Of a DNA stretch of 64,000 nt, positions 3,038 to 63,027 are shown one piece after another (position 1 is the stretch's first letter; each line of letters begins with the position of its first letter). Below the pieces are notes generated by a model. The model did no database searches and was not told where the DNA came from. It saw only the letters and a program-made list of their open reading frames with translations. The stretch lies in assembly GCF_044324875.1 (NCBI RefSeq), contig NZ_CP172188.1, one strand, 5' to 3'. This DNA is from Escherichia coli. GTDB taxonomy: Bacteria > Pseudomonadota > Gammaproteobacteria > Enterobacterales > Enterobacteriaceae. The position numbers and the translations under genes are program-made.

Positions 3038-3050
3038 TTGTGTTAGAAAA
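3038..3050 (+). promoter_or_regulatory. copy of dispersed motif TTGTGTTAGAAAA, ~70 bp upstream of the Ref-like gene
   Basis: One of at least nine intergenic occurrences (see findings). Confidence 0.35.
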
Positions 3051-3118
3051 TCAATTTTGAATATCTAACTGTTTTGATCAATCATAGAAAAATAGCTGAA
3101 AAGTAAGAGGCAGCCATC

Positions 3119-3697
3119 ATGCAGAAACAGAGCTATTGGGAGAAACAGAGACAAAAAGCCATGCAAAAATTGGCTGACCCAGCCTGGCGAGAGGAACAAA
3201 GGGCAAAGCGCCTTCAACAAGCTCAACGCCAGCAGCAGCGAGCGAGAGAAAAAGCCGCATCGCCTGAATATCGGCAAAAGAAAATTGAAAAAGCAAAGCA
3301 ATATGAACAGCGGAGAAAAGATAAAGCTGTATCCGCTCCGCCCAAAAAAACACGCACGTCACGCGGCCTGAAGGGCAGATCACTCACAGCCGATGAACGC
3401 CGGATACAGACCGCTATCGGTACTCTCCCCTGCATTGCCTGCCATATTCACGGGCAACATAGCCCAGTGGTATCCCTGCACCATATCTTCGGGAGAACGG
3501 CAGAGAACGCACATAAATATGTCCTCCCTTTGTGTAAATGGCACCACCAGTACGCAGCGCCAGCCGAGGTCCGAGAACAATATCCCTGGCTGGTCCCTGT
3601 TCATGCTGATGGAAAAATAGGCGGAAAAGCAGATTTCATACGGCACAATGCCGATGAAATGGCGTTGTATCAGATGGCGATTGAATTAATAAATTAG
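3119..3697 (+). CDS. Ref-family (DUF968-like) HNH-type nuclease-like protein
   Basis: 192 aa; basic low-complexity N-terminus then LPCIACHIHGQ...SLHHIFG...LPLCKWHH Cys/His motifs; GAGG Shine-Dalgarno. Confidence 0.5.
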   Translation: MQKQSYWEKQRQKAMQKLADPAWREEQRAKRLQQAQRQQQRAREKAASPEYRQKKIEKAKQYEQRRKDKAVSAPPKKTRTSRGLKGRSLTADERRIQTAIGTLPCIACHIHGQHSPVVSLHHIFGRTAENAHKYVLPLCKWHHQYAAPAEVREQYPWLVPVHADGKIGGKADFIRHNADEMALYQMAIELIN

Positions 3698-3707
3698 TTT
3701 TCTAACA
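3698..3707 (-). promoter_or_regulatory. copy of dispersed motif (reverse orientation, TTTTCTAACA) just after the Ref-like gene
   Basis: Reverse complement of the TGTTAGAAAA core. Confidence 0.3.
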
Positions 3708-4028
3708 TTTTAAGTTGAATTGTAAATTTCTCCGATGTACATTCACTACCGATTGGCACACCGGTCAACTTTTTGAGACAAACTGTTTAGTTTTTCGTAT
3801 TATTGCCCCCGCCATACCTATGGCGGTGCAATATAGGTGGCTGAAAAGCCCCCGTTGACTCACGGTGTTCCAGCCTTTATTGCGCCGCCACCAGACCGTG
3901 GAACAGTCGATGGCGGCTCCGAAAGCAAGGAGTCACTACACTATGAACAACTACAGTCTTTTCCCATCACTCGTCGTCCACCACTCACGCGATAATCTGC
4001 ATTCTTTATTCGCGCTGGGGGAGTCAAA

Positions 4029-4196
4029 ATGACTGTTCGCTACCTCAACTTTCAAATCAAGAACATTACTGGCGGTTGCTATGACTGGTTTGTCACTCTC
4101 GGAAAAGAAGTGATTACCGGGAAGCTGGATGAAGTGAAAGCTAAAGCAATGGCCTACGCCTGCAAGCAAGCCCGGAAGAAATCCGCCAAAGCATAA
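4029..4196 (+). CDS. small hypothetical protein (55 aa), coupled to an upstream 29-aa ORF at 3943-4032
   Basis: GGGGGAG before ATG; ATGA overlap with the upstream mini-ORF; followed ~100 nt later by a terminator. Confidence 0.25.
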   Translation: MTVRYLNFQIKNITGGCYDWFVTLGKEVITGKLDEVKAKAMAYACKQARKKSAKA

Positions 4197-4301
4197 AATA
4201 CTGACTGTTGCGCCCTGGCATTATCGTGGGGTATATTTCTACGGCACCTTAGAAAAACGGGTGCCGGGATTGGAACCCCGGATAATGCAAAAGGCGACAC
4301 A

Positions 4302-4323
4302 GACGCCGAAAGCGTCTTTTCTT
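4302..4323 (+). terminator. rho-independent terminator candidate
   Basis: gacgc-cgaaa-gcgtc hairpin followed by ttttctt. Confidence 0.5.
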
Positions 4324-4329
4324 GTGTCA

Positions 4330-4508
4330 TGCCATCGCACAGCCATACGTAGCGTTTAGCTCAGAGATCAATGGTAGTGCTGGCTGGGCTGCCGAAAGGC
4401 AGGCCGGTTCCCTTTTGCGCCGGTAGTTCCAACCCAGTCAGTGCTACCGCCATTGAGATTGGAACCTCACGCGGTAGCTCCTTAAATTAGCAAAAGGAGG
4501 CTGCCAAT
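4330..4508 (+). promoter_or_regulatory. structured leader of antirepressor module A (differs from the leaders of modules B/C/D)
   Basis: Hairpins ctgcc-gaaa-ggcag (~4388-4401) and gttccaa...ttggaac (~4415-4458); AGGAGG before the ATG at 4509. Confidence 0.3.
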
Positions 4509-4724
4509 ATGGCTACTATCCCTACCCCAACTCATTCTGAATTTATCTGGCGTTTCTATTCCTGCCAAAAACACCTGTATATCTGCGTCATGGCTGCAAC
4601 CGAAGCAGAAGCTCGTTCATACCTTCCTGAAGAACCCTGCATTTTTGCCGCACGCTTCACTCTTGATGCGATGGAGATCCTCAATTACTGGAATCTGCCA
4701 ATGAACTGCGTGGAGGTGCACTGA
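4509..4724 (+). CDS. small protein upstream of the antirepressor (Icd-position ORF, module A)
   Basis: 71 aa; stop overlaps the ATG of the next gene (TGATG); paralogous to 28238-28462, 38110-38325 and 63376-63600. Confidence 0.6.
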   Translation: MATIPTPTHSEFIWRFYSCQKHLYICVMAATEAEARSYLPEEPCIFAARFTLDAMEILNYWNLPMNCVEVH

Positions 4725-5665
4725 TGAATCTGTCCATCTCTCAAAAAGCGACAATGACCAGCATTGAGATCGCGGAACTGGTAGGAAGTCGCCAAGATAG
4801 TGTGAAGAGAACTATCGAAACACTGGCTAAAAAGAGTGTGATCCAATTTCCACAATCTGTGGAAATTGAAAATAAACAATCAGTTGGCCCTCGTCGATTT
4901 TCCAAGGCTTACATCTTTGAAGGCGAACAAGGCAAGCGCGATAGTATCATTGTCGTCGCACAGCTCTCTCCGGAATTCACCGCCCGGCTGGTGGACCGCT
5001 GGCGCGAACTGGAGAATGCCAGGGGACCGTTAAAATCAAAAGCCGAAATCCTGGCTGAAATGGCGCAAATGCATCTTGAGCATGAACGCCGGATCAACGC
5101 CGTAAATGCCCAGGTAGCCGAGGTATCAGCACAAGTATCGATGGTCGCTGAAACACTCGAGCAAATAAAGAAAGGCAATATGCCGGAAGGCTACATTGGC
5201 TACCGCCAGCTGGCGGCGAAATGCGGCCTGACTGAAGCCAAATGTCGCAACCTGGTTAACGCTTACCGGATACCCACTGATACGCATGAGTTTTTGACTC
5301 CCGACGGTTTGCTTGCGCGACGCTCAATTGTGGCCCTGGCCCCCTTCCGGAAAGCCTTTAAGCAGGTTATGTCGGAGGCAGAACCACGCAACAAACGCTG
5401 GTATCATCCAAAGATGGGGATGTTTCAGGCAATCCACCATCCTGTGCCTGAAAGTCCAAAGGCAAACCTGTCGTTGCATACCGCCAGAGAGAGGATTAAA
5501 ACAGGGTATGCAATCGTATGCCGTCGAGCATCTTGGCCTGAAGGTGTATGGGTATGGCCCGAAGGTGGATCACGAAAGCACTGGCGCACTATCCGGGATG
5601 GGAAAATCCATGCGATTGATTTAGCTCCAGAGGATGTTGTTGCTACGGACTGGATTGTTAGTTAA
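4724..5665 (+). CDS. phage antirepressor-type protein (Rha-like N-terminal domain plus conserved C-terminal domain), module A
   Basis: 313 aa; N-terminus ...MTSIEIAELVGSRQDSVKRTIETL... resembles the Rha regulatory domain; C-terminal ~180 aa nearly identical to the module B and C proteins. Confidence 0.6.
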   Translation: MNLSISQKATMTSIEIAELVGSRQDSVKRTIETLAKKSVIQFPQSVEIENKQSVGPRRFSKAYIFEGEQGKRDSIIVVAQLSPEFTARLVDRWRELENARGPLKSKAEILAEMAQMHLEHERRINAVNAQVAEVSAQVSMVAETLEQIKKGNMPEGYIGYRQLAAKCGLTEAKCRNLVNAYRIPTDTHEFLTPDGLLARRSIVALAPFRKAFKQVMSEAEPRNKRWYHPKMGMFQAIHHPVPESPKANLSLHTARERIKTGYAIVCRRASWPEGVWVWPEGGSRKHWRTIRDGKIHAIDLAPEDVVATDWIVS

Positions 5666-5673
5666 TTACTGTT

Positions 5674-5695
5674 GCCCCGGCCTGTCCGGGGCTTT
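5674..5695 (+). terminator. conserved hairpin / terminator after the antirepressor gene
   Basis: ccccgg-cctgt-ccgggg followed by cttt; the same element follows modules B and C. Confidence 0.5.
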
Positions 5696-5724
5696 AACTA
5701 CTAAATAACCGGATTCTCCGCACG

Positions 5725-6009
5725 ATGAAGAAAATAGATTTCACTTACTCTGCTGCCACAATCCAGCGACGTTTCAGTCTCATAAGGGAAGTGGAACTAT
5801 CAAAAAACTGGTATCAAATTCTACTGGATGAAGAGTTTTCACTGATGGTTATAGCAGAAAAATTGGCTATGCCGAATGACCGGCACAAGGTCATAGCCAG
5901 CCTGGATCTGGTGACAAACAGATACTGGGAATCCGAGGAACTACTTGAAGTTGGCTTGATACGCGAGATGATAGAACAGGCTGTTCCCCTCCACTTACAG
6001 CAACCATAA
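5725..6009 (+). CDS. hypothetical protein (94 aa)
   Basis: ORF at the start of an AT-rich segment; no recognisable motif. Confidence 0.4.
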   Translation: MKKIDFTYSAATIQRRFSLIREVELSKNWYQILLDEEFSLMVIAEKLAMPNDRHKVIASLDLVTNRYWESEELLEVGLIREMIEQAVPLHLQQP

Positions 6010-6505: not shown

Positions 6506-6545
6506 TAGCCAAAAAGCAGGCTTAATAGTAAGCCTGCTATGTCAA

Positions 6546-7367
6546 TCACGAATCTCTCTGACAATTCAGAAACATAAACGCCCGCTTGTCTGTTAAATCC
6601 GTAACATAATACTCTCTCATGCCTGTAGGTTTTATTCTACGAGCATATACAAACTTATGAACTGGTTGTTTTTCCCCATAACTTACATCAGTCCTAAATT
6701 CATCAACCACGCTACCATCTTTTTCGACTTCCTTCCTCACCAGCTTATTTTCTAATGCTGGCTTTAATTCGTCCATGCCACTAAAAGCATCCTGGCCTGT
6801 ACTATTGCCTCGATTTCCGCGCGGCAAATCCCAGGAGAAATAAGTGCCATAGTCAGTAATCACACGATCCCAGACTCCGGTATCCCCCATATAGTTAGAG
6901 CGCTTTCCATTGTAGGTTACAGCCACTTTACAGGAGTACGTTTCTTCATTCCCTCCAGCCTTACTCGCTGTGGTTGCAGGGATATTTTGGATAGATGCGC
7001 TTACGTCATCTTGCGTTAATTCCTCAACTGGAGCAAATTCATATATGGGTGTGCCGAGGCTATTTAAATATAACTTATATCTAACCCTAAGCGCACTTCC
7101 ATCTGAGAATTCATACGTTCCCAGGCATTGGAGCTTATTTTTTTCTCTTATCTCATTGATCTGATAATAAGCATCAATTACAGAGATTGCTTCCTGATCG
7201 TCCTTCAGCAGTTCATTATAATCATCAATTAACATCTGTCTGGTTTTAGGGGCATTGCAGTCAATTTTGCTAAAATCATAAGCAAAGGCAAATGTGGGAA
7301 CAGAGAGAGCAACAACAGTAGCAAGTATTGTTGAGGAACATCTTTTTCCATTTTTTATAAAAAACAT
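6546..7367 (-). CDS. secreted / periplasmic protein of unknown function
   Basis: Start chosen at MFFIKNGKRCSSTILATVVALSVPTFAFA (signal-peptide-like, GGAG 8 nt upstream); the ORF track extends to 7430; AT-rich. Confidence 0.5.
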   Translation of the reverse strand: MFFIKNGKRCSSTILATVVALSVPTFAFAYDFSKIDCNAPKTRQMLIDDYNELLKDDQEAISVIDAYYQINEIREKNKLQCLGTYEFSDGSALRVRYKLYLNSLGTPIYEFAPVEELTQDDVSASIQNIPATTASKAGGNEETYSCKVAVTYNGKRSNYMGDTGVWDRVITDYGTYFSWDLPRGNRGNSTGQDAFSGMDELKPALENKLVRKEVEKDGSVVDEFRTDVSYGEKQPVHKFVYARRIKPTGMREYYVTDLTDKRAFMFLNCQRDS

Positions 7368-7607
7368 TTCATTAACTCCATACTTTACCATCTTAGCCGC
7401 GAGCGCGGTCCCTAAAACCATTAACTTCACTGCACCGTTCCTTCATGCAATCAAAATGACTTTTATGTTATAAAAATAATCAGCCAAATCAACATGATTT
7501 AGGCCAAATGCGTATTCCGCTCTATTCGATCACGGATTGGCATCGAAGTCCGATCAGCGATTCGCATCCATTCGATCAACCGGGAACTTAACTTTTTCTA
7601 CCGCTTT

Positions 7608-8363
7608 TTAACGCGTTTTTTCGCTGCTTTCCACTACCGGGGGATTTTTCCTCAGTGACTCTCCCTGAAGGACCACTCGGTGTGAGTTATGTACCAGTCT
7701 GTCCAGGATGGCATCTGCTGTTGTTGGGTTCTCCATCAGACCATGCCATTTATCTACCGGGAACTGGCTTACCACTATCGTGCTGCTTTGTCCGTAACGA
7801 TCCTCTATGAGCTCCAGAAGGTCATTACACTGGGCGTTACTTAACTGTTCCAGCCCCAGATCGTCCAGGATTAGAACCTGTATTTTTTGCAACTGTTTCA
7901 GATATTTCAGCCAGCTGCCATCAACACGTCCCTGAGCCAGTTGTTCCAGTAATCGCCCGGTTCTACAGTACCGGACGCTGTGTTTCTGTCGACATGCCTG
8001 TTCGCCCAGCGCATTGGCTATCCAGCTCTTGCCACATCCTGTCGGACCGGTTATCAGCAGGTTTTTCCTGTGGGTTATGTAGTGGCCGTTCAGCAGTTCT
8101 CTCATCTGTTCAGCCCGCAGACCTCTTGAGGCCGGATAGCGCAGCCCTTCCGGTGTTGCCTGGTATTTCAGGCCGGCATTTTTTCTCAACCGTGCCACAC
8201 GGCTGTTTTCCCTGCTCAGAAGCTCGTCATCAACCAGCAGCGTCAGCCTTTCCTCGAACGACAGTTCGTCGTAGGTCTGAGGCGTTTCCCGCTGCCGTAT
8301 CAGGCTCCCGGCCATCGCCGGGAGTTTCAGTTGGGTCAGTTTGTTTAACAGGTTATCACTCAT
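7608..8363 (-). CDS. istB: IS21-family transposition helper ATPase IstB
   Basis: Walker A GPTGCGKS, DExx-like LILDDLG; start set at MSDNLL with AAGGAA Shine-Dalgarno; the ORF track extends upstream to 8606. Confidence 0.85.
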   Translation of the reverse strand: MSDNLLNKLTQLKLPAMAGSLIRQRETPQTYDELSFEERLTLLVDDELLSRENSRVARLRKNAGLKYQATPEGLRYPASRGLRAEQMRELLNGHYITHRKNLLITGPTGCGKSWIANALGEQACRQKHSVRYCRTGRLLEQLAQGRVDGSWLKYLKQLQKIQVLILDDLGLEQLSNAQCNDLLELIEDRYGQSSTIVVSQFPVDKWHGLMENPTTADAILDRLVHNSHRVVLQGESLRKNPPVVESSEKTR

Positions 8364-8379
8364 ACTGTTGTTCCTTCTG

Positions 8380-9915
8380 TCAGTGGTAGTAGCCCGGACC
8401 ACGCAGGTTTTCATGCTCTGAAGCATATGCCGGATGTTGTTCGCCCTGGCGGGATAATGGAAGCTCCAGGTTCTCCCGATGGTGACGCAGCAGATTGTCG
8501 ATAAAGCGTCTGTCAGGGGCGTTATAGTGCAGGGCAACGTAACAGGCCTTTTCCAGCCGTTCCGGGCCGTATTTTTTCTGAAGTGCCAGCAGCCCCAGAA
8601 CTGCACGATAAGCCAGTTCCGGATGGGGTTTTGCCTTCAGCATGGATTCAACCACCCGGCCTGTGGACGGGCCCGTACGTTTTCCCTGCTCGATCAGGCG
8701 TTCCGGTGTCCATGTCCCGTGCTGCCGGTGGCGCTCTGGCATGTGAAGCGGATTGGTTGTGTGTTTATATTCATGTGTGCTGCGCGGATGTTGCGCCACA
8801 CACTGCCCCTTGTGCCAGAGCTGTACCACCGACTGCCCCGCCTTCAGTGACAGACGCTGACCGACCAGTTCGTGTGGAACGGAGTACCAGTGACGGGCAT
8901 ATTCAACGTGGTAGTCAGGGCCAACCTTCACAGCTTTGTATTCCGTGTATTCATAAGGTGCCAGAGGCAGCGGAGAGAGTGCTGGCGCATCCAGTATGCG
9001 GAAGCGTTCTGCACGGGTTTGATTGCCGTACCCCTTCATTGGCCGGTTATTCATGTCTGTCAGTAACTCCCTAAGGCGCGCATTCAGCGCCCTGAGCGTG
9101 TGGAAGGTTTCATTACGGATGCGGGCAAGAAGCCATCGTTCAACGATGAGGACGCCGTTTTCTGCTTTTGGTTTATCTTTAGGTTTGCGTGGTCGGGCCG
9201 GGATGATAACCGTGCCATAGTGCTCAGCCAGTGCCTGATAACTGTCGTTGATGACAGGCTCATATCGATCGGCCTTTTTCACTGCGCTTCTGAGGTTATC
9301 GGGGATGAGCAGCTTCGGTACGCCGCCCAGGAAGGTCAGGCAACGGCTGTGGGCATTTAACCATGACATCATGTCCTGACCTTCGCACGCTTCAACGTAG
9401 GTATAGTTGGACGCCCCCATTACGGCCACGAAGATTGCCACGCGGCGTATCTCACCGGTGTCCGGATTAATAACAGGAACCGTAGGACCACAGAAGTCGA
9501 TAAAAAGCTTTTCGCCGGCACGATGCTCCTGGCGCATGGAGAGACGTCGCGTTTTTTTCCACTCCCGGTAGCAACGGCAGAAGTGCGAGTATCCCATCGC
9601 TTTGTTACCCGCCTGTGCCTTGTATTCCATCCACAACAGTTGCCGCGTCACACCTGGTTTTCTCATTTCCGTATCGAAGTACAACATGTCAGGCATTACA
9701 AGCTCTGATGCAAAGGTGTCTTTGGGCGGAAAAATGAGTTTCTCCAGCGTGTCATGGGATATATCAGCAGGTAATGGCCATGACAGAGAAGAGGCTTTGA
9801 AGCGGGCAAGAACCTCAAAAACGGTTGAGGCGCTGATGTGTAACGTCAGTCCGATACAACGGTTAGTCAGCTTCTTGTCGAACTTGAGCTGAAGGATCTT
9901 AAAACAGGTTTCCAT
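8380..9915 (-). CDS. istA: IS21-family transposase IstA
   Basis: ~511 aa from METCF... (AGGAG Shine-Dalgarno); N-terminal HTH and a DDE-type core; the ORF track extends to 10026. Confidence 0.85.
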   Translation of the reverse strand: METCFKILQLKFDKKLTNRCIGLTLHISASTVFEVLARFKASSLSWPLPADISHDTLEKLIFPPKDTFASELVMPDMLYFDTEMRKPGVTRQLLWMEYKAQAGNKAMGYSHFCRCYREWKKTRRLSMRQEHRAGEKLFIDFCGPTVPVINPDTGEIRRVAIFVAVMGASNYTYVEACEGQDMMSWLNAHSRCLTFLGGVPKLLIPDNLRSAVKKADRYEPVINDSYQALAEHYGTVIIPARPRKPKDKPKAENGVLIVERWLLARIRNETFHTLRALNARLRELLTDMNNRPMKGYGNQTRAERFRILDAPALSPLPLAPYEYTEYKAVKVGPDYHVEYARHWYSVPHELVGQRLSLKAGQSVVQLWHKGQCVAQHPRSTHEYKHTTNPLHMPERHRQHGTWTPERLIEQGKRTGPSTGRVVESMLKAKPHPELAYRAVLGLLALQKKYGPERLEKACYVALHYNAPDRRFIDNLLRHHRENLELPLSRQGEQHPAYASEHENLRGPGYYH

Positions 9916-10307
9916 AGTGCTCCTGGATTTTCTCTTTCTGGACATTGACGTCTCCACTGGTTTAAACACGGCAATGGAGACTGTGGTGAAAAGAGTTAAT
10001 TCCCGGAGTGACTGGCAGGATGCCAATCAATGATCGGAAGCATGCCAAATCGTGATCGATTGTGATGCCAAACTGTGATCGGAGATGGATGCCAAATCAT
10101 GATCGATTCGAATGCCAAACTGCGATCGATTCAGATGCCATTTTGCAGCCAAATTTCTGTCAAAAAATAAAATCCACAAAAAGTGGTTGACACTATTTTG
10201 GAAATCACAAACTGCACATAATCCATCGCGCTAACGGCTCCCGTTGAAGGTTCTTTTGACGATTAACTTTCAGCCGAAGCGCGGTAGGGAGTCATAACGC
10301 CAAAGCA

Positions 10308-10331: not shown

Positions 10332-10358
10332 GTATCCGTCATCCGTGGAGGAAGGACA

Positions 10359-18167: not shown

Positions 18168-18817
18168 AGCGTAGAGCGCAAATTGTTGGAACTGTGCACC
18201 CGGCAGGGCTTATGCGTGCTCAGGTCCGTGTTTTACCAGACTGGAATGGCGTTCCTGATGACGATCTACCCTGGGCAGAATACCTGTTACCCATAGGTAA
18301 CGCGTTTGTACCTACAGTAAAAGGCGACCTGGTATGGGTAGAGTTTCCTTATCTGGATGTTAATGGTCGAATTGATACCAGACGCCCAATGATAGTTGGC
18401 GCAGCTCAGGATGCGCCTGGCGGAGTACCAAACGTCGCGCCGGAGGCGTCAGGCAATGGTAGCGGCTGGACGCCACCAGAAGTAGACGGAGCGCCTCCCC
18501 GCCCGCAATTTTCGGCGACAAAAGATTTCGTGATTCACCGCAACAATGTGCTCGAAGTGCGAACGGCTGGCGGTGGATATGAAATAGCGAATACGGCAGC
18601 AGGCTCAAGGATTGGAATGAATGAATCAGGGCAGATATACATCATTGGTCCGGCTGATGTAGTAGTGAATGCGGGAGGGAGTGTTAACGTCAAATCAGCC
18701 GATAACATCAGCGTTAATGGCAAAAACATTACTGTGACAGCCGACGAAAATATTGATTTCAAGGCTGGAGGCACCTTCCAGGCTATCGCAAGCAACTTTG
18801 ATTTCAAGAAGGGATAG
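18164..18817 (+). CDS. baseplate central spike protein (gpV-like)
   Basis: N-terminal region VRVLPDWNGVPDDDLPWAEYLLPIG... and a Gly-rich C-terminal repeat-like region (ISVNGKNITVTADENIDFKAGG) resembling gpV-type spikes. Confidence 0.5.
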   Translation: MKRRAQIVGTVHPAGLMRAQVRVLPDWNGVPDDDLPWAEYLLPIGNAFVPTVKGDLVWVEFPYLDVNGRIDTRRPMIVGAAQDAPGGVPNVAPEASGNGSGWTPPEVDGAPPRPQFSATKDFVIHRNNVLEVRTAGGGYEIANTAAGSRIGMNESGQIYIIGPADVVVNAGGSVNVKSADNISVNGKNITVTADENIDFKAGGTFQAIASNFDFKKG

Positions 18818-18826
18818 AAAACACAT

Positions 18827-18870
18827 CCAATTGTGTTAGATAATTGAACAGAATTTTCTAACACAATTGG
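18827..18870. promoter_or_regulatory. perfect 14-bp inverted repeat carrying the dispersed motif in both orientations, upstream of rdgC
   Basis: CCAATTGTGTTAGA (18827-18840) ... TCTAACACAATTGG (18857-18870), 16-bp spacer. Confidence 0.45.
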
Positions 18871-18876
18871 TGAAAC

Positions 18877-19782
18877 ATGAGATCAGTCGCTTTCAAAAAC
18901 ATCTTCATCTATCGTCTTTCACGTGAAGTTAACTGGAGTGCCGCAGAAGTATCCGATGCTCTTAGCAAATTCGTGTTTACTCCTTGCGGTTCTCAGGACA
19001 CAGCTAAAGTCGGTTGGACACCTGTTCTTGGTGACAACCTCACCCATGAATACCAGGGTTTTCTGCTAATACAGCATAAGCGAGAAGAAAAAATTCTCCC
19101 CTCGCAGGTGCTCAAGGAAGAGTTGCAGAAAAAAGTCCTGAAACTCGAAGAAGAGCAAGCCCGCAAGCTGAAGAAAACGGAAAGAGACAGTCTTAAAGAT
19201 GAAGTCCTGCATTCCCTTTTGCCTCGCGCGTTCACGAGAAAATCACTCGCCAAAATCCTGATCGACCGCAGCAACCATCTGGTATTCGTTGAGGCAAGCA
19301 GCGCCAAAAAGGCAGAGGACCAGCTGGCTTTATTGCGAAAATCGCTCGGCAGCCTGCCTGTCATTCCATTCACACCACGCGAACCGCTGGAAATTACAAT
19401 GACCGAGTGGTTTAAAAACGGCTTCCCTGCCGGATTTACAGCAGGTGAAGACGCCACATTAAAGGGTCTGCTCGATAATGGTGGTGCCGTTCGCTGCAAC
19501 AAAGTTGATCTACAGTCCGACGAGATTATGTCTCACATTGAGGCGGGGAAAGTAGCTACGACCGTTGCAATTAACTGGATGGAACGCGCGTCGTTCAGAG
19601 TCAACGATGATATGAGTATCAAAGCCCTGACATTCTGTGATGATCTCTATGACCAGAACGACGATATCGACCGGGAGGATGTAGCACAACGATTTGATGC
19701 TGATTTCGTGCTCTTTACGGGCGAATTATCTGCACTGTTTAACGCGCTGGTGGAGGCCATTGGCGGTGAAGCAGAACGATAA
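18877..19782 (+). CDS. rdgC: recombination-associated protein RdgC homologue
   Basis: 301 aa; near-colinear similarity to E. coli RdgC as I recall it ([35 protein letters not shown]..., [26 protein letters not shown]). Confidence 0.85.
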
Positions 19783-27870: not shown

Positions 27871-27896
27871 GCTTCACAAAATCTATATAGCTATTT

Positions 27897-27909
27897 TATG
27901 TTAGAAAAA
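27897..27909 (+). promoter_or_regulatory. copy of dispersed motif (TATGTTAGAAAAA) ~50 bp upstream of the module B promoter
   Basis: See findings. Confidence 0.35.
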
Positions 27910-27961
27910 TAATTTGAATTTTCGAACATAAACAATAAAATAAATCATCAAAAATTTGATG

Positions 27962-27990
27962 TTGATCTTCCATGTTTTCAGGCTTATATT
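27962..27990 (+). promoter_or_regulatory. sigma70-like promoter of module B
   Basis: TTGATC - 17 bp - TATATT; identical sequence in module D and, reverse-complemented, in module C. Confidence 0.5.
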
Positions 27991-27996
27991 CACGCC

Positions 27997-28237
27997 GTTG
28001 CAGCAAATTCTGCGACCGGGTTTAGCAGCCTGAATGTACATGCGGACAACCGCAGATATCCGATATTGCGGTATTTTTGTGTCCGTAAAACCATGTTACG
28101 CCCGAATTATGGTGGGGCGTGATGGGGAGGCTTCGGCCTGCTGGTTTCATGTACGCCAGTCTGCTAACCCCGTCACGTCCTGCCACCCGTTTAGCAGCGG
28201 GTAGCAGGTTGTTAAACCTGTACATGAGGCCGTAACT
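27997..28237 (+). ncRNA. structured leader with an embedded c4-like antisense regulator and two target sites (module B)
   Basis: Elements TTAGCAG/GTACATG at 28022-28042 and 28191-28226 (the second abuts the GAGG Shine-Dalgarno) are complementary to CATGTAC/CTGCTAA at 28148-28167; the complementarity is kept by compensatory changes in modules C and D. Confidence 0.5.
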
Positions 28238-28462
28238 ATGGTTAATGCCAATCCTTGCTCACGTCCAGAATTCATCTGGCGTTTTCACTCCCTGCAAAAA
28301 CACTGCGATCACTTCGCAATTGCCGCAACTGAAAAAGAAGCCCGTTCTCTGATCCCTGATCAGTATGGTGTTCTTACTGGTCGTTTCTCTACTTCCCCAC
28401 AACCAAACACTAATCCCTGGTATCGCAATATTACCAATCCCGGAATTGCGGAGGCACACTGA
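28238..28462 (+). CDS. small protein upstream of the antirepressor (Icd-position ORF, module B)
   Basis: 74 aa; TGATG coupling to the next gene. Confidence 0.65.
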   Translation: MVNANPCSRPEFIWRFHSLQKHCDHFAIAATEKEARSLIPDQYGVLTGRFSTSPQPNTNPWYRNITNPGIAEAH

Positions 28463-29382
28463 TGGATATCTGCATTCTTGAAAAGCCATCAATGACCAGC
28501 ATTGAGATCGCGGAGCTGGTGGGAAGTCGTCCAGATAACGTAAAAATATCAATAGAGCGCCTGGCTAAATCTGGAGTTATTCAACTTCCTGCATTGCAGG
28601 TTTTCGAAAAAATCAATAACTTAGGACTACGCCGTAGTGTCGAGGCTTACGTCTTCGAAGGCGAGCAAGGCAAACGAGACAGCATTATTGTCGTTGCGCA
28701 GCTCTCTCCCGAATTCACCGCCCGGCTGGTGGACCGCTGGCGCGAACTGGAAGAACAAGTACGCCAGCCGTTGACCGAAATAGAGATGATCGCCGCAATG
28801 GCTGCAAATGCAGTTCAGCAGCAAAAGCGGCTTCATGTTGTTGAGTCAAAGGTTAGCCAGGTTGCTGAAACCGTCGAGCAGATCAAGAAGGGCAACATGC
28901 CAGAAGGTTACATTGGCTACCGCCAGCTGGCGGCGAAATGTGGCCTGACTGAAGCCAAATGTCGCAACCTGGTTAACGCTTTCCGGATTCCCACCGATAC
29001 GCATGAGTTTTTAACTCCAGATGGTTTGCTTGCGCGACGCTCCATTGTGGCCCTGGCCCCCTTCCGGAAAGCCTTTAAGCAGGTGATGTCGGAGGCAGAA
29101 CCACGCAACAAACGCTGGTATCATCCGAAGATGGGGCTGTTTCAGGCAATCCATCATCCTGTGCCTGAAAGCCCAAAGGATAATCTGTCACTACATACCG
29201 TCAGAGAGAAGATCAGGACTGGATACGCAACAGTGTGTCGTCGTTCTTCCTGGCCTGAAGGTATATGGGTGTGGCCCGAAGGTGGATCACGAAAGCACTG
29301 GCGCACTATCCGGGACGGGAAAATCCATGCTATTGATTTAGCGCCAGAGGATATTGTTGCTACGGACTGGATTGTTAGTTAA
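28462..29382 (+). CDS. phage antirepressor-type protein (Rha-like N-domain), module B
   Basis: 306 aa; N-terminus ...MTSIEIAELVGSRPDNVKISIERL...; conserved C-terminal domain. Confidence 0.65.
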   Translation: MDICILEKPSMTSIEIAELVGSRPDNVKISIERLAKSGVIQLPALQVFEKINNLGLRRSVEAYVFEGEQGKRDSIIVVAQLSPEFTARLVDRWRELEEQVRQPLTEIEMIAAMAANAVQQQKRLHVVESKVSQVAETVEQIKKGNMPEGYIGYRQLAAKCGLTEAKCRNLVNAFRIPTDTHEFLTPDGLLARRSIVALAPFRKAFKQVMSEAEPRNKRWYHPKMGLFQAIHHPVPESPKDNLSLHTVREKIRTGYATVCRRSSWPEGIWVWPEGGSRKHWRTIRDGKIHAIDLAPEDIVATDWIVS

Positions 29383-29417: not shown

Positions 29418-29822
29418 CTAAAAATCTGTTCGCTGTCGCCATGCGTTTTTTAACTCAGGAATATCCGCCATTTCAATTAACTTGCGAAGTCCAGCACTGA
29501 CTTTCCCATTGCCAACCATAGCAAGCCAATCTCTTACAGCTTTCGGCATGTAGAGCGTTGCAGTTACCGGCTCTTCAACCCTGGCAGGACATCCGCATAC
29601 AGGCCATTTAATTGATTCCATAACTTCGGATGCCGGGGTGAGGGCGGGGACATTGAGTATATCTCTACCAGAAAACTGGATAACGATCCGTTCAGCGAGC
29701 GAGAGTATCTCACTTTCGGCAAGAATTGATGCCAACTGCGCCTCAACAAGAAAGCGACTTGTTGTGTTCAGAGAGTGGCTCTTAGCGCCATTTTTATACG
29801 AAACAAAGATTCGATACGCCAT
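29418..29822 (-). CDS. hypothetical protein (134 aa)
   Basis: ORF; its start lies 12 bp from a copy of the dispersed motif (29834-29848). Confidence 0.45.
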   Translation of the reverse strand: MAYRIFVSYKNGAKSHSLNTTSRFLVEAQLASILAESEILSLAERIVIQFSGRDILNVPALTPASEVMESIKWPVCGCPARVEEPVTATLYMPKAVRDWLAMVGNGKVSAGLRKLIEMADIPELKNAWRQRTDF

Positions 29823-29980
29823 AACTCTAATGATTTGTGTTAGAAAACTAAAATTAAATCACATAACAACATGTGTGTTAATAGATTTTATTTTACTAAA
29901 CCTATTGACTAAATCACAAAGTAGGTATTGTTAGCCCGTCAAAAGAACCTTCACGCCGCGCCCGAATTTAGGGCTTAACC

Positions 29981-38600: not shown

Positions 38601-38653
38601 CATCAAATTGTTGATGATTTATTTTATTATTCATGTTTGAAAATTCAAATTAT

Positions 38654-38666
38654 TTTTCTAACACAA
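38654..38666 (-). promoter_or_regulatory. copy of dispersed motif upstream of the module C promoter
   Basis: TTTTCTAACACAA on the plus strand = TTGTGTTAGAAAA on the minus strand. Confidence 0.35.
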
Positions 38667-47925: not shown

Positions 47926-48372
47926 ATGGCTGAAAATTTAAAGGCAAGAGATGGTAACCGCCTGTATAAGGCGCAATTGCTTTCCTACTATTATTCACGC
48001 CGCGCTGAGTCGGCGATCGGCAAAGGTGCGCGTTTTGTTATCTCTAAGGCGTATTGGTGCAAATCTAGTCTGGTAACTGCTAATGGTGCAGGAGGCTGGA
48101 ATATAGCGGACATTCCACTCGATTTTAAATTGAGTAACGCTCAACAGTTTGCTGTGTCCGATCTGATATTGTCCAGTGTGGATGGGATTATCACTATCAA
48201 TGCAGCCTTCCCTCAAGAAAGAATGCCGGATAACACGCCTTACGACTTTAACACGCTTGTGCTTGTGGATGCTGAGGAACAGGCTTTTGCTGTGCTTTGC
48301 ACCCAGCAAGACACCCTCTATAAAGGTAAACGTTACAGTATTCTCATGACAATCGAGCAAGTTGAGGGTTGA
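47926..48372 (+). CDS. hypothetical tail protein
   Basis: 148 aa; stop overlaps the tail-fibre start. Confidence 0.35.
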   Translation: MAENLKARDGNRLYKAQLLSYYYSRRAESAIGKGARFVISKAYWCKSSLVTANGAGGWNIADIPLDFKLSNAQQFAVSDLILSSVDGIITINAAFPQERMPDNTPYDFNTLVLVDAEEQAFAVLCTQQDTLYKGKRYSILMTIEQVEG

Positions 48373-51257
48373 TTATGGGTGCTGATAAAACGAACAACAT
48401 AATGACACTATCCTCTGGTGTCTCACAGCCGTTGCTTGCTGATGTTCAATATTTCGAACTCTATAGTAGTTCGGCTCTTAACAGAAAACTTAAAAATATT
48501 GTTTTGCCGGGCTTTTACTGTGGATTTGAACCGGTTCCCGGCACAGGGTTGAGTGTCCGTATAACTTCTGAAAACTCAGAAGGTAAAGGGGCTGCTTCAG
48601 TAGATGTAAATAATGTTCAGATATCCGTTCAGCAAATAGAAGATGTGACTGTCTCGGTAAAGGCAGGGGCTACCAACATTATTGTGCTGGAAGCCAATTT
48701 TGAACATGGTGTAAAAACGACACAGGTAGATAGCGCATCTTCTGTCAGTGCTGCAAGAATTTACGCGCGTACGGACAATACTATTGGGCAGAATCAAATT
48801 GAATTATGTCGAGTTATCGTGCCTAGCGGCGCAACGGCTGTGACTAAAGAAATGATTGTGCTTAAATACCGGGTTAACCGTGCTGTTGGTGTCGAATTCT
48901 CTAATGAAATAAGCAGTACAGAAGAAAGAAAAGCGGCTACACCTCTGGCTGTCAAAACTCTCCATGATTTGGTTGATACAAAAGCCCCGATCAACAGCCC
49001 GAATCTGACAGGAACGCCAACAACACCAACAGCGCCACAGGGGACTAATAATACCCAGATCGCAAGCACGGCTTTCGTTATGGCCGCGATTGCCGCACTT
49101 GTAGATTCGTCACCTGATGCACTTAACACTCTGAACGAACTGGCCGCCGCGCTTGGTAATGATCCGAACTTTTCCGCGACAGTGACTCGCCTGATTGGAG
49201 AAAAAGTTGCCAAAGATGGCGACACCATGACAGGTAAACTTAATCTGCCGCAGACCTCTGCATTCGGCATCAATACCAACAACAGACTGGGGGGGAACTC
49301 TCTGACGCTGGGCGATCACGATACCGGAATTAAACAGGAAGGAGACGGCGTATTGTCCGTGTTCGCCAACGGCCAGCGTGTGTTCCTTTTCACGGAAAGA
49401 AGTATTACCTCATTAAAAGAGCTTCTGATAGGGGATGCACGTTATAGCACCGGTGGTGATGTGTATGGCAGTCAGTGGGGAGACGGTTGGTTGAGTTCCT
49501 GGTTAAGTGCTCGCTTTGCAGAGTGTGCCAACGCCAGCCATAACCACCCTTGGAGCCAGATTACCGACGTACCAGCAGCCAGCCTCACTCAGAGCGGCAT
49601 TGTACAACTTAGTAGTGCCATCAACAGCACTTCTGAAACATTAGCTGCAACTCCAAAAGCGGTTAAAGCTGCATACGATCTAGCAGCCGGAAAGGCACCA
49701 TCCAGTCATACACACCCCTGGAATCAGATCACTGGTGTGCCAACAGCTTCATTGACAGCGAAAGGCATCACTCAGCTCAGTAGTGCTACTAACAGCACGT
49801 CTGAAGTGCTGGCCGCCACACCAAAAGCTGTCAAGGCTGCATATGACCTGGCTAACGGGAAGTATACAGCCCAGGATGCAACCACGACACAAAAAGGGAT
49901 AGTTCAGCTCAGTAGCGACACCAACAGCACTTCTGAAACATTAGCTGCAACTCCAAAAGCGGTTAAAGCTGCATACGATCTAGCAGCCGGAAAGGCACCA
50001 TCCAGTCATACACACCCCTGGAATCAGATCACTGGTGTGCCAACAGCTTCATTGACAGCGAAAGGCATCACTCAGCTCAGTAGTGCTACTAACAGCACGT
50101 CTGAAGTGCTGGCCGCTACACCGAAAGCGGTTAAAGCTGCATACGATCTAGCAGCCGGAAAGGCACCATCCAATCATATACATCCCTGGAATCAGATCAC
50201 TGGTGTGCCAACAGCTTCATTGACAGCGAAAGGCATCACTCAGCTCAGTAGTGCCACTAACAGCACGTCTGAAGTGCTGGCCGCTACACCGAAAGCGGTT
50301 AAAGCTGCATACGATCTAGCAGCCGGAAAGGCACCATCCAGTCATACACACCCCTGGAATCAGATCACTGGTGTGCCAACAGCTTCATTGACAGCGAAAG
50401 GCATCACTCAGCTCAGTAGTGCTACTAACAGCACGTCTGAAGTGCTGGCCGCTACACCGAAAGCGGTTAAAGCTGCATACGATCTAGCAGCCGGAAAGGC
50501 ACCATCCAATCATATACATCCCTGGAATCAGATCACTGGTGTGCCAACAGCTTCATTGACAGCGAAAGGCATCACTCAGCTCAGTAGTGCCACTAACAGC
50601 ACGTCTGAAGTGCTGGCCGCTACACCGAAAGCGGTTAAAGCTGCATACGATCTAGCAGCCGGAAAGGCACCATCCAATCATATACATCCCTGGAATCAGA
50701 TCACTGGTGTGCCAACAGCTTCATTGACAGCGAAAGGCATCACTCAGCTCAGTAGTGCCACTAACAGCACGTCTGAAGTGCTGGCCGCTACACCGAAAGC
50801 TGTCAAGGCTGCATACGATCTGGCAAACGGAAAACAACCGGCAGATGCCACGCTCACTGCTCTGGCAGGACTTGCCACTGCAGCAGATCGGTTGCCTTAT
50901 TTTACCGGAGCAGACCGCGCAGCGCTGACAACCCTTACAGCTATTGGTCGCGCTATTATCGCTAAGGGCAGTATAAAAGATGTCCTCAATTACCTTGGTT
51001 TAGGAGAAGGCTCGGCGCTACCCGTTGGTGTGCCTGTTCCATGGCCCACCGCCACACCGCCAGCAGGCTGGTTAAAGTGCGACGGGCGCGCCTTTACAAA
51101 AGAACAATATCCTGTTCTGGCCAGAGTCTACCCGACCCTCCGTCTTCCCGATTTACGCGGTGAGTTTATCCGTGGATGGGACGACGGGCGAAAAGTTGAT
51201 ACAGGGCGCGATTGCTTTCACGGCAAGGGGTACAAGTTTTTCTCATTACGGAGGTAA
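48369..51257 (+). CDS. tail fibre protein with variable C-terminus encoded in the invertible segment
   Basis: 962 aa; about seven tandem ~60-aa repeats containing ATPKAVKAAYDLA...H.HPW.QITGVP (classic fibre repeat); the last ~85 aa lie inside the invertible segment. Confidence 0.7.
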   Translation: MIMGADKTNNIMTLSSGVSQPLLADVQYFELYSSSALNRKLKNIVLPGFYCGFEPVPGTGLSVRITSENSEGKGAASVDVNNVQISVQQIEDVTVSVKAGATNIIVLEANFEHGVKTTQVDSASSVSAARIYARTDNTIGQNQIELCRVIVPSGATAVTKEMIVLKYRVNRAVGVEFSNEISSTEERKAATPLAVKTLHDLVDTKAPINSPNLTGTPTTPTAPQGTNNTQIASTAFVMAAIAALVDSSPDALNTLNELAAALGNDPNFSATVTRLIGEKVAKDGDTMTGKLNLPQTSAFGINTNNRLGGNSLTLGDHDTGIKQEGDGVLSVFANGQRVFLFTERSITSLKELLIGDARYSTGGDVYGSQWGDGWLSSWLSARFAECANASHNHPWSQITDVPAASLTQSGIVQLSSAINSTSETLAATPKAVKAAYDLAAGKAPSSHTHPWNQITGVPTASLTAKGITQLSSATNSTSEVLAATPKAVKAAYDLANGKYTAQDATTTQKGIVQLSSDTNSTSETLAATPKAVKAAYDLAAGKAPSSHTHPWNQITGVPTASLTAKGITQLSSATNSTSEVLAATPKAVKAAYDLAAGKAPSNHIHPWNQITGVPTASLTAKGITQLSSATNSTSEVLAATPKAVKAAYDLAAGKAPSSHTHPWNQITGVPTASLTAKGITQLSSATNSTSEVLAATPKAVKAAYDLAAGKAPSNHIHPWNQITGVPTASLTAKGITQLSSATNSTSEVLAATPKAVKAAYDLAAGKAPSNHIHPWNQITGVPTASLTAKGITQLSSATNSTSEVLAATPKAVKAAYDLANGKQPADATLTALAGLATAADRLPYFTGADRAALTTLTAIGRAIIAKGSIKDVLNYLGLGEGSALPVGVPVPWPTATPPAGWLKCDGRAFTKEQYPVLARVYPTLRLPDLRGEFIRGWDDGRKVDTGRDCFHGKGYKFFSLRR
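49540..50830 (+). repeat. tandem ~180-bp in-frame repeats in the tail-fibre gene
   Basis: Near-identical units with few substitutions (for example SSHTHPW versus SNHIHPW). Confidence 0.8.
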
Positions 51258-60787: not shown

Positions 60788-60800
60788 CCGGAGGGAAATA

Positions 60801-61799
60801 ATGCAATCACTGAATACTGTTACGGATCGCTTCTCCCTGGTAGAGAAAATCCGCAAACACACACCGCAGAACAACCGAAATTACGTCATTCAGTCGGTAC
60901 GAGACACATTCAACTCGCCAGAAACAAAAGAGCGTATCGCGCTGGGTGAGATGTATGGTTATTACGGTCATGGTCGCCGGGCGATGCACTATAACAAAAC
61001 GAAAAGCCTGAACTTGCCGGAAGTCTCTGTTGTGATGGTAGATGGGAAGCCTGTTGTATTGGAGAACGTGCCATCCAACAGGACTATCGACATTTCGATT
61101 GACGACAACGGCATTGTTACCCATACGCAGGAAATACTGGATACAGACACCGGGCGTATTGTTCAGGGGATGATAAATTCTGGCGCCGGTGGTTGGTCAT
61201 GGGCTACATCTGGTCCAGACTCATCGGTATCCCTGGTAAAGTCTTTCCACGGCTTTGATTACGTAACTGTGCCTAACTATATCAGCCTCGACAAGAAAAG
61301 CCTGATGCTTGAATCAGCAGAAGAGCGCGATGCGGCTATTCATGCAGCACTTATCGAACAAGGTTTTACCGATAACGCTGCCACGGATCTGGTTCACCAC
61401 TTTTCAGCGATGAAAAATCAGCAAGCCATGCTCGAGTCTGCACATCGTGAAGCCCTGGAATCAGAATTAATGCTCCTTGAAGCGGAAAATATGCAACTTC
61501 GCGACAAATTACGAAACCAGGCTGCAATGATGGAAAGCCAGGGCGAAGATGCGAAGAAATGCCGCCGTATTTTGCGTGATGCTATCCAGGAAATGCCTGT
61601 TTTTATCAGTGCAGAACAACGCCGGGCGCTCTGCCGTATGCAGTCTGAAGATGATGCTCGCATAGTGGCTGCGATGCTTGAATCTCTGGGGGCAAATGCG
61701 ACTTATGGCTTACCGATATCAGGCAAGAAAGAGGCGGAGTTATCACCGAAGGAGAACAAAAATACCACACCGTTACTCTTCGTTTCGCGACGGGCGTAA
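60801..61799 (+). CDS. prohead protease / scaffold-like protein (tentative)
   Basis: 332 aa; GEMYGYYGHG motif near the N-terminus and a helical C-terminal half. Confidence 0.4.
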   Translation: MQSLNTVTDRFSLVEKIRKHTPQNNRNYVIQSVRDTFNSPETKERIALGEMYGYYGHGRRAMHYNKTKSLNLPEVSVVMVDGKPVVLENVPSNRTIDISIDDNGIVTHTQEILDTDTGRIVQGMINSGAGGWSWATSGPDSSVSLVKSFHGFDYVTVPNYISLDKKSLMLESAEERDAAIHAALIEQGFTDNAATDLVHHFSAMKNQQAMLESAHREALESELMLLEAENMQLRDKLRNQAAMMESQGEDAKKCRRILRDAIQEMPVFISAEQRRALCRMQSEDDARIVAAMLESLGANATYGLPISGKKEAELSPKENKNTTPLLFVSRRA

Positions 61800-61815
61800 C
61801 CGTTACATGAAGTTA

Positions 61816-61828
61816 AATTTCTAACATA
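61816..61828 (-). promoter_or_regulatory. copy of dispersed motif (reverse orientation) after the protease-like gene
   Basis: AATTTCTAACATA = reverse complement of TATGTTAGAAATT. Confidence 0.3.
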
Positions 61829-61911
61829 GTGTATTTATATACACTGTTGATCCTGTTCGATGTGATCGAGTAGGATCGCGGTCACTGCTCCGGTAGCGAC
61901 TGCCAAAAAAG

Positions 61912-61937
61912 CAAAAGCCGCTGAGAAGCGGCTTTTG
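61912..61937 (+). terminator. rho-independent terminator candidate
   Basis: agccgc-tgagaa-gcggct followed by TTTT. Confidence 0.55.
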
Positions 61938-61999
61938 GGTGTATAAATCCTCGGACATAGATTTATACGGTAGATAGATTTTTTTCACGGAACTATCTG

Positions 62000-62962
62000 G
62001 TGAGTATTTTAAATTCAGTTTCAGTAACTTTCAACACTTCTGAGTATAAAAACAACACTGAATACCACAAAAAAATCAAAGGTCATCAGTTGAGTTTTTT
62101 TGCTCGCCACTGTGGTTTTCTTTCCCCTTCACATAGCGCCATTATTGCCGAGTTCGCCAACCTGGCAGGGGCTACCGATGAATACATGATCCGTCGTTCA
62201 TATGCTGATATGTCCGAGATTACAGGACGCAGTATTTCTACTGTGCGCCGGGCATTTGCTGAAGCGACGAAGTGCGGAATGCTTGTTAAGCAACATCAGG
62301 TAGCGAATAACAATGCTCAGGTGTGTAACGTATACCGGTTTACAACACAATTTCTCCACTTCATTCATGTAGCAATGGAGATAGGGGGTAAGCAGGGCAT
62401 CAAATTTGCGAACGCCACAAAACTGGTTAAGCAGTTGATTTCAAATGTTCGGTATTTTTTTGAAACTGGGAACCCCCTGTTCAAATTGAACAAGTCCCCC
62501 CATGTTCAAAATGAACAGCCAATAGAAAATAAGAGTCACTCTATAGCCAAAAGAAGAGAAAGATCATGCGCGGTTCAGCCAAAGGCTTCACCAGCAGATA
62601 GTTCCCAAGCGGATAATGGATTACTGGATAAAAAACCAGTAATCAGGGAGGAACATACCAACCACTGCCTGGCGGCGGCAAAAGCGAGAGCTGCAAAGCG
62701 TCGTTCAGACGAGGGGCACGCAAAACGGCAGGCTCTGTATCGTACCGCTGAAAAGCTGGCAAAAAAATTTGCATGGATACGTAGTGCCGCTACCGCAGTG
62801 AATAAGCCTAAACAATCCAGTGCCCTGGATTTCTCAATGGATTATTCTGGCTCCCAGGGGTGTGCAACCATTGGTGAAGCCTTTGACCTGATGAAACAGC
62901 GTGGCTATCGGTCTGAATTTGACCGGGAGGATTGGTCAATCCCTGCGGGATTTAGGGGATGA
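62000..62962 (+). CDS. HTH-containing protein, possibly a replication initiator or regulator
   Basis: 320 aa; MSEITGRSISTVRRAFAEATKCGML HTH-like; basic C-terminal region; preceded by palindromes and a GATC cluster. Confidence 0.35.
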   Translation: MSILNSVSVTFNTSEYKNNTEYHKKIKGHQLSFFARHCGFLSPSHSAIIAEFANLAGATDEYMIRRSYADMSEITGRSISTVRRAFAEATKCGMLVKQHQVANNNAQVCNVYRFTTQFLHFIHVAMEIGGKQGIKFANATKLVKQLISNVRYFFETGNPLFKLNKSPHVQNEQPIENKSHSIAKRRERSCAVQPKASPADSSQADNGLLDKKPVIREEHTNHCLAAAKARAAKRRSDEGHAKRQALYRTAEKLAKKFAWIRSAATAVNKPKQSSALDFSMDYSGSQGCATIGEAFDLMKQRGYRSEFDREDWSIPAGFRG

Positions 62963-63012
62963 CCTGTGTGTCTACAAAGCATCCCAATGATCGGAAAATG
63001 CTCGCTCGATGA

Positions 63013-63027
63013 TTTGTGTTAGAAAAT
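63013..63027 (+). promoter_or_regulatory. copy of dispersed motif upstream of the module D promoter
   Basis: TTTGTGTTAGAAAAT. Confidence 0.35.

Follow-up and report, generated by a model that had tools for sequence, protein, structure and literature searches.

A stretch of 64,000 nucleotides from Escherichia coli contig NZ_CP172188.1, here referred to as the window, belongs to an element of the Escherichia phage D6 type and carries a dispersed intergenic word, GTTAGAAAA in its shortest form. The word is very probably the operator at which the C1 repressor of the D6 lineage acts, a distant homologue of the C1 repressor of phage P1. A first-pass annotation of this DNA had proposed that a C1-like master repressor uses it as a scattered, asymmetric operator, and comparison with related elements supports this proposal. 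The sites described here are predicted binding sites, and the D6-lineage operators would represent a different DNA specificity within the known P1-type C1 regulon.

In a megablast search, the window matched D6, a P1-family plasmid prophage, with ~95% identity, and a whole-window comparison revealed that it is collinear with D6 from 77.8 kb down to 20.3 kb in the reverse orientation. Compared with D6, it contains insertions with a transposase at ~7.5-10.1 kb and with antirepressor cassettes at ~27.9-29.4 kb and 37.0-38.7 kb. The D6-type backbone is common to hundreds of E. coli and Salmonella plasmids, and a D6-type C1 is carried by 149 plasmid records. In the D6 record, c1 is located at 227-1264 and lpa, coding for the late activator, at 4161-4553, and by collinearity both genes fall ~16-20 kb past the right end of the window. 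No C1 homologue was found within the 64-kb window by tblastn (best E = 0.11), and the D6 c1 gene, past the right end, is preceded by the motif, in agreement with the suggestion that the repressor gene lies outside the window. D6 gene 1 is annotated as a "prophage repressor, similar to P1 C1." The two proteins share 21% identity over 240 amino acids (E = 2e-8), and both are full-length matches to PHROG phrog_1678; judged from these sequence comparisons, D6 C1 is a genuine but distant P1 C1 homologue. The C1 family is small, with 59 clusters at the 50% identity level in a set of 1.84 billion proteins. No Pfam domain was detected in C1 even at E <= 10, nor was a helix-turn-helix, and a search of the PDB with a C1 profile returned no solved structure of C1 or of a relative.

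The excess of the motif over chance was seen with each of the measures used. Exact matches to GTTAGAAAA numbered seven in the window against 0.80 expected, a count reached in 0 of 100 shuffles, and the 13-mer TTGTGTTAGAAAA was matched nine times with no more than two mismatches (2.3 expected). A position weight matrix (PWM) of 24 nt, trained on 16 sites from the window and D6, identified 12 half-sites at nine loci in the window with scores of 15.9 to 32.9, the next best window position scoring 8.9. Eight of these 12 half-sites were part of the training set, and the others are marked in Table 1. Order-2 Markov simulations gave an expectation of 0.10 half-sites in the window at a threshold of 15, and D6 itself has 17 half-sites at 15 loci; the expectation for the two sequences was 0.1-0.2. 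All of the 13-nt cores in the window are located outside real genes. Under an open reading frame (ORF) model that deliberately over-calls and leaves 10.1% of the sequence non-coding, 10 of the 12 cores still fall outside ORFs (P = 6e-9), and according to the curated annotation of D6, 16 of its 17 half-sites are outside coding sequences. The intergenic enrichment in D6 had a P value of 4e-13. The description of a dispersed motif at many intergenic sites, more frequent than base composition predicts and biased toward non-coding DNA, therefore stands. The coordinates given in the first-pass annotation were correct to within a few bases, and the perfect 14-bp inverted repeat that it described is CCAATTGTGTTAGA, at 18827-18840 and 18857-18870; the sites that it listed were real, but it had overlooked the 7463 site, which is weak, as well as partner half-sites at 27919 and 38631.

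A consensus drawn from 55 distinct sites in six elements, TrTGTTAGAAAAyTAAwTT, is ~20 bp long and asymmetric; it can also be written (T/A)T(G/A)TGTTAGAAAA(T/C)TAA(T/A)TT, and TGTTAGAAA is almost invariant within it. The word is used either singly (monovalent) or as an inverted pair (divalent), the divalent form being composed of two 13-mers separated by 10 bp, with a total length of 36 bp and a single fixed spacing. Strong partner half-sites were found at the identical offset in 14 of 14 cases across five elements, with scores of up to +31 compared to a background average of -36. Roughly half of the strong sites are unpaired. Those of the window include the after-ref and 29835 sites; D6 and its relatives have unpaired sites at pmgS, at c1, and beside cre, among others.

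The places at which the word occurs are those of the P1 C1 regulon. P1 C1 binds 22 dispersed operators, the 17-bp consensus of which, ATTGCTCTAATAAATTT, is asymmetric, and it controls repL and lpa (PMC8546580). In the curated P1 record, C1 operators precede ref, c4-icd-ant, kilA-repL, uhr-hrdC-dmt, and lpa; others are placed at the 3' end of ref, after repL, around pmgR and pmgS (OpmgRa/b), and elsewhere, and the known P1/P7 operators also include Obanab and Oc1. Sites in the window and D6 are found at equivalent places (ref, immunity module, repL, dmt, and lpa). The D6 type and P1 or P7 have in common a homologous repressor and an asymmetric word of ~17-20 bp with an AT-rich 3' tail, present in many copies over a 90-kb plasmid prophage in both single and inverted-pair forms, and they share the targets ref, after ref, c4-icd-ant, repL, hrdC-dmt, lpa, and c1. 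They differ in that the D6-type divalent site is 36 bp long with a 10-bp gap between the cores, whereas P1 Obanab is 28 bp long with overlapping tails; in that the D6-type C1 protein, with 345 amino acids, has a C-terminal helical hairpin of ~65 amino acids, which P1 C1 lacks; and in that the window contains four antirepressor modules, whereas P1 contains one. For a D6-like plasmid, it has been reported that the Lxc co-repressor was not detected (PMC6799933). Identity of immunity specificity with P1 was considered and is ruled out by the lack of a consensus match in either direction: ATTGCTCTAATAAATTT has no match in the window with up to three mismatches, and the P1 genome contains no D6-type site, its best PWM score being 10.3 compared to 13-33 for true sites.

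Conservation of the word follows the repressor lineage. In D6, the core of the c1 site ends 19 nt before the c1 ATG, and the lpa site is located 76-88 nt before the lpa ATG, compared to 71-87 nt for P1 Olpa; further D6 sites are present around pmgS and pmgR, before pdcB, and next to cre. The c1-proximal site is invariant in plasmids with C1 proteins that are 90, 80, 70, and 68% identical, while the sequence upstream of it diverges, and in four aligned regions upstream of ref and five upstream of c1, the word forms an invariant island in diverging sequence. Relatives with 90 and 80% identical C1 proteins keep the word before lpa as well as before and after ref. The region before lpa gave no scored site in the 70% relative, and lpa is missing from the 68% relative, a degraded chimera. 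In plasmid pK91 (L006), a degraded chimera, the c1-proximal site is the sole informative one. Leclercia plasmid pE1_003, whose C1 is 30% identical, is without the D6 word; instead, CCTTAGAATCTA occurs four times in 30 kb, always in intergenic regions and once ~50 nt before c1, making it a candidate for a third operator specificity in the C1 family. The same word is thus found at C1 identities of 68-100% and other words are found in P1 and in Leclercia, the one distant lineage examined besides P1. Another invariant island, TTTTCTAA, was noticed ~80 nt further upstream than the c1-proximal operator (L001, positions 116-123, and relatives; alignment A1, columns 57-64). It constitutes a partial inverted half-site and is followed by a conserved ATCCTTTACTCA; the two may represent a second, weak operator and the c1 promoter.

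From the site distribution, a mode of operation can be proposed. C1 would be the binding protein, with one monomer probably bound per ~20-bp word, and its sites would coincide with, or adjoin, promoters whose genes must be silent in the plasmid-prophage state. In the window, the repressed set would consist of ref, the hrdC-methylase operon, repL, required for lytic replication, and the C4-icd-antirepressor modules, and past the window it would include lpa and, by autoregulation, c1 itself. As a -35-like TTGAAT is located in the dyad centre, bound repressor would block RNA polymerase and so occlude the promoter. Inactivation of the repressor by the antirepressors would then allow all of these promoters to fire, and Lpa would subsequently turn on the late operons via a separate box, AAATCACAnACT. 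The lambda CI and Cro operators likewise overlap lytic promoters and serve in autoregulation, as proposed here for the D6 C1 sites; however, they are symmetric 17-bp sites bound by helix-turn-helix dimers at two loci by the repressor gene, whereas the D6 word is asymmetric and distributed genome-wide.

Several observations weigh against the assignment of the word to C1. The assignment draws on comparative evidence, and the binding of C1 is itself predicted. With the D6 c1 gene lying beyond the window and no such gene found inside it, we infer the presence of c1 on this replicon from relatives. Although the first-pass annotation noted a loose resemblance to the P1 C1 consensus, the D6 and P1 words are no more alike than expected by chance for AT-rich words (P = 0.37; Smith-Waterman alignment against shuffles). 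Three of the strongest sites are not independent of one another, as they belong to paralogous cassettes (27.9, 38.6, and 63.0 kb). The promoter-like hexamers are weak, with 9/12 hexamer matches, and upstream of ref no promoter was predicted above the threshold of the tool. Single sites are oriented inconsistently relative to the downstream gene, and no consistent rule emerged for the orientation of sites relative to downstream genes or the origin. Finally, a literature search for the motif string and for D6 operators returned nothing relevant, with the D6 genome paper (Gilcrease and Casjens, 2018) outside its reach; that paper may already list these sites, while the D6 GenBank record annotates no operators.

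It is unlikely that a protein other than C1 binds the word, be it a Cro- or Coi-like switch protein, the small "DNA-binding protein" of the operon divergent from ref, or a nucleoid protein of the host, with C1 itself recognizing some other sequence. The genes under control are those of the P1 C1 regulon, c1 and lpa included; the motif changes when C1 does, as in P1 and Leclercia, and stays constant at C1 identities of 68-100%; and apart from the late box, we found no further repeated intergenic word that would fit a C1 operator. Such a protein would nevertheless be compatible with the AT-rich nature of the motif, which resembles many nucleoid-protein sites, and with the several unassigned small DNA-binding proteins encoded by D6-like elements, and the evidence on the identity of the binding protein is indirect. 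Still less probable is a role as a special promoter element recognized by an element-specific activator or by Lpa. Such a role would account for the similarity of TTGTGT to a -35 hexamer and for the position of sites before operons, including the 29835 site in front of the capsid operon, but GTTAGAAAA sites occur in both orientations, in inverted pairs, and directly after a stop codon (3698), the c1 site is located between the likely promoter and the ribosome-binding site, and the controlled genes are early or immunity genes and not late ones. That the word lacks any function, reflecting AT-rich composition or copies carried along with duplicated cassettes, is scarcely credible. The paralogous cassettes do share sequence around the site; however, six other loci have unrelated flanks, and the sites are strictly intergenic, form conserved islands in diverged alignments, and show a fixed dyad spacing. 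Chance and hitch-hiking are excluded by the count statistics together with these six loci and the conserved islands.

Late operons carry a box of their own. AAATCACAnACT was matched nine times in the window (1.7 expected), in each case on the plus strand and co-oriented with the gene, and a -10-like hexamer follows 3-5 nt after it. The box precedes late operons, including mat, gp7, capsid, pmgB/sit, tail-fibre R/S, lydA, portal, and others, and is probably the D6-lineage counterpart of the Lpa-dependent late promoter of P1. The latter consists of a -22 box, AAGTGACTT, and a -10 hexamer, a pattern for which no convincing matches were found in the window; the analogous arrangement here uses a different word. 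The box is co-oriented and located before morphogenesis and lysis operons, neither of which is true of the GTTAGAAAA sites, and the identification of GTTAGAAAA as the Lpa late promoter is ruled out by its occurrence in both orientations, its association with early and immunity genes, and the existence of this separate late box.

The predicted operators of the window are listed in Table 1. Their neighbours were recognized in PHROG and Rfam searches as genes for a Ref endonuclease, an RdgC-like protein heading the methylase operon, RepL, and a SimB-like protein. The ref operator lies between the ref-like gene (3119-3697) and a divergent gene, with its partner at the fixed offset, and corresponds to P1 Oref; the block is kept in four relatives, the flanks of which have diverged. 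Directly 3' of it, at 3074-3087, we observed a TTGATCAATCAT block with a Dam site (GATC) that is invariant but for one base in four diverged relatives (alignment A3) and that may act as a -10 region or, like elements annotated at P1 kilA and cre, be sensitive to methylation. The place of the after-ref operator, at the 3' end of ref, is equivalent to that of P1 Omat. This operator adjoins a promoter-like TTGAAT-17-TACATT (3715-3743), which is directed toward an isrK-like RNA, C4, icd, and ant, and the first immunity module, downstream of this operator, is a probable target of it. The weak simB site is identical in D6, at 72202.

Table 1. Predicted operators, late-promoter-like boxes, and immunity modules of the window, and CCTTAGAATCTA sites of pE1_003
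Feature	Coordinates	Strand	Exact GTTAGAAAA match	PWM half-site position(s)	PWM score(s)	Form and context
ref operator	3038-3073	+	3042+	3035+	28.9; partner, 5.2	Strong half-site TTGTGTTAGAAAA at 3038-3050; weak inverted partner at 3061-3073
After-ref operator	3698-3710	-	3698-	3690- (outside training set)	26.0	Single; directly after ref stop codon
simB site	7463-7475	+		7460+ (outside training set)	17.6	Weak single TTATGTTATAAAA; 33 nt upstream of simB-like gene 6546-7430 (-)
hrdC dyad	18831-18866		18854-	18828+/18846-	19.6 + 24.2	TTGTGTTAGATAA-N10-TTTTCTAACACAA
Extra-module dyad 1	27896-27931	+	27900+	27893+/27911-	30.9 + 23.4	P1 equivalent, Oc4
Capsid-side single operator	29835-29847	+	29839+	29832+	31.2	No partner; D6 counterpart at 54208
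Extra-module dyad 2	38631-38666	-	38654-	38628+ (outside training set)/38646-	32.3 + 15.9	Promoter-like TTGAAT-16-TAAAAT
repL site	61817-61829	-		61809- (outside training set)	16.6; D6 orthologue, 13.0	Weak single TATGTTAGAAATT
After-repL operator	63014-63049	+	63018+	63011+	32.9 (best in window); partner, -6.1	Strong half-site at 63014-63026; very weak partner at 63037-63049
Late box AAATCACAnACT	10202, 15566, 26049, 29911, 40169, 47867, 53839, 57605, 59052	+				
Immunity module 1	C4, 4367-4454; icd, 4509-4724; ant, 4724-5665	+				Rfam RF01695, 76.7 bits
Immunity module 2	a1b1, 27984-28036; C4, 28105-28190; icd, 28238-28462; ant, 28462-29382	+				Rfam and Ant family
Immunity module 3	a1b1, 38578-38526; C4, 38458-38373; icd, ~38325-38110; ant, 38197-37112	-				Rfam and Ant family
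Immunity module 4	a1b1, 63123-63175; C4, 63243-63328; icd, 63376-63600	+				Rfam; shared with D6
CCTTAGAATCTA in pE1_003 (L009)	4068, 9475, 19209, 24322					Positions on pE1_003

The hrdC dyad is located 11 nt upstream of the hrdC/rdgC-like gene (18877-19782) at the head of the methylase operon, a position equivalent to that of P1 Odmt. The window and D6 have both of its half-sites in common but differ at 5 of the 10 spacer bases. A promoter-like match at 18815-18844 overlaps the left half-site, which contains the -10-like GATAAT. The single operator at 29835 had been regarded as controlling the structural operon at 29981, an assignment that is doubtful: the site is 13 nt from a divergent gene with an unassigned function (29418-29822, minus strand) and 134 nt from the major capsid gene (29981), and it lies upstream of, and outside, the capsid late-promoter-like box (29911-29922). 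The weak repL site, separated by 18 nt from the head-protease gene before it and by 171 nt from repL (62000-62962) after it, has a neighbourhood equivalent to that of P1 OrepL. The after-repL operator is identical in D6, at 21267, and has its P1 equivalent in Orlf/Oc4; the score of its partner, low as it is, still lies above the 99th percentile of the background.

The first-pass annotation counted three antirepressor modules, but Rfam, PHROG, and Ant family assignments revealed four modules of C4 antisense RNA, icd, and antirepressor in the window. Three of the four contain c4-a1b1 target elements, each located 50-110 nt downstream of a strong dyad. In module 1, the place of the a1b1 element is taken by an isrK-like RNA, a match to the Rfam family of the Hfq-binding small RNA isrK at 4244-4322 (plus strand; 59 bits) just upstream of C4. 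In two immunity modules, the -35 hexamer of a promoter-like TTGAAT-16-TAAAAT is located in the dyad centre, and at the 27896 dyad this element (27914-27941) lies inside or adjoins the dyad. Three modules have a second promoter-like sequence, TTGATC-17-TATATT, further downstream and free of operators, comparable to P1c4 of P1. The modules at ~27.9-29.4 and 37.0-38.7 kb are inverted relative to each other and flank the capsid-to-tail-tube operon, and they are absent from these places in D6.

Two further features of the window were noted. A GC-richer stretch at ~7509-10148, between simB and mat and not present in D6, is probably an insertion sequence; it contains a 548-amino-acid transposase-family ORF at 8380-10026 (minus strand) and a second ORF at 7608-8606 (minus strand). 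The tail-fibre gene (48369-51257) contains six or seven tandem 168-bp coding repeats at 49500-50900, as in P1 gene S. The top-ranking words of an unbiased k-mer enrichment, GATCTAGCAGCC, CAGCTCAGTAG, and others, correspond to these repeats and were rejected as regulatory candidates.

Structural predictions suggest a possible rationale for the asymmetry of the word. An AlphaFold2 model of D6 C1, built with a 47-sequence alignment, had a mean predicted local distance difference test (pLDDT) score of 94.8 and a predicted template modelling (pTM) score of 0.83. A Foldseek search of the PDB with this model returned four significant matches, all of them Tus-Ter complexes (E = 8e-8 to 4e-7 over ~305 columns), the next match having an E value of 0.35, and in AFDB50 the first neighbours beyond the C1 family were Tus proteins from many gammaproteobacteria. 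D6 C1 is therefore predicted to have the Tus fold, with the qualification that the TM-score between Tus and the C1 model is ~0.4 and the domain arrangement differs. In E. coli, Tus is a monomeric protein that binds the asymmetric 23-bp Ter site and causes polar arrest of replication forks. It resembles D6 C1 in its asymmetric site of ~20 bp and in the presence of a site just upstream of its own gene, tus being autoregulated via TerB, which is located 11-12 nt before the tus start codon (PMC8707476), and the D6 c1 core being 19 nt before the ATG. The roles differ, as C1 would repress transcription at many promoters, whereas Tus arrests forks.

Sequence comparisons gave little indication of a C1-Tus relationship. 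No match of C1 to the Tus family (PF05472) was found in Pfam at E <= 10, and the C1 profile found nothing in the PDB. With hhalign, C1-Tus probabilities of 8% and 16% were obtained, with the same register in both runs, which places the invariant R159 of C1 on Tus R232, the invariant pair R157/R159 being aligned with the K229-R232 strand of Tus; the search for Tus homologues gave close relatives only, and the addition of divergent plasmid Tus proteins identified by tblastn raised the probability slightly. In this context, it was observed that ~1,290 plasmids, mostly conjugative (IncC and others; e.g., L012-L015), encode a Tus homologue that is ~29% identical to E. coli Tus, so that proteins of the Tus family are frequent on mobile elements. 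At the DNA level, TerB (AATAAGTATGTTGTAACTAAAGT) and the c1-proximal operator share TATGTT...CTAAA, which is not significant (P = 0.07), and the consensus words showed no significant similarity to Ter (P = 0.57-0.73). A literature search found no paper linking C1 and Tus. We give an even chance to the idea that P1- and D6-type C1 proteins are structural, and possibly evolutionary, relatives of Tus and that one monomer reads each GTTAGAAAA word in the manner of Tus, with beta-strands in the major groove. The link is a structural prediction and not an established homology; it could rationalize the asymmetry of the operators.

D6-like phage-plasmids are widespread in E. coli, Salmonella, and Shigella and have been studied as carriers of resistance genes. 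The operator word would define the immunity group of these elements and predict their whole repressed regulon from sequence, including four separately repressed antirepressor cassettes, and it may serve as a handle for induction, curing, and engineering. As a second, very diverged example of P1-style immunity, the D6 system should also help to work out how C1 reads DNA. The asymmetry of the P1 C1 operators is a long-known oddity, which a Tus-like mode of reading, if true, would explain; it would further connect repressors of mobile elements with the origin of the Tus-Ter fork trap of enterobacteria and make C1-operator complexes possible polar roadblocks. If confirmed, a Tus-like fold of C1 would join two textbook systems without a known relation and make the origin of Tus experimentally approachable.

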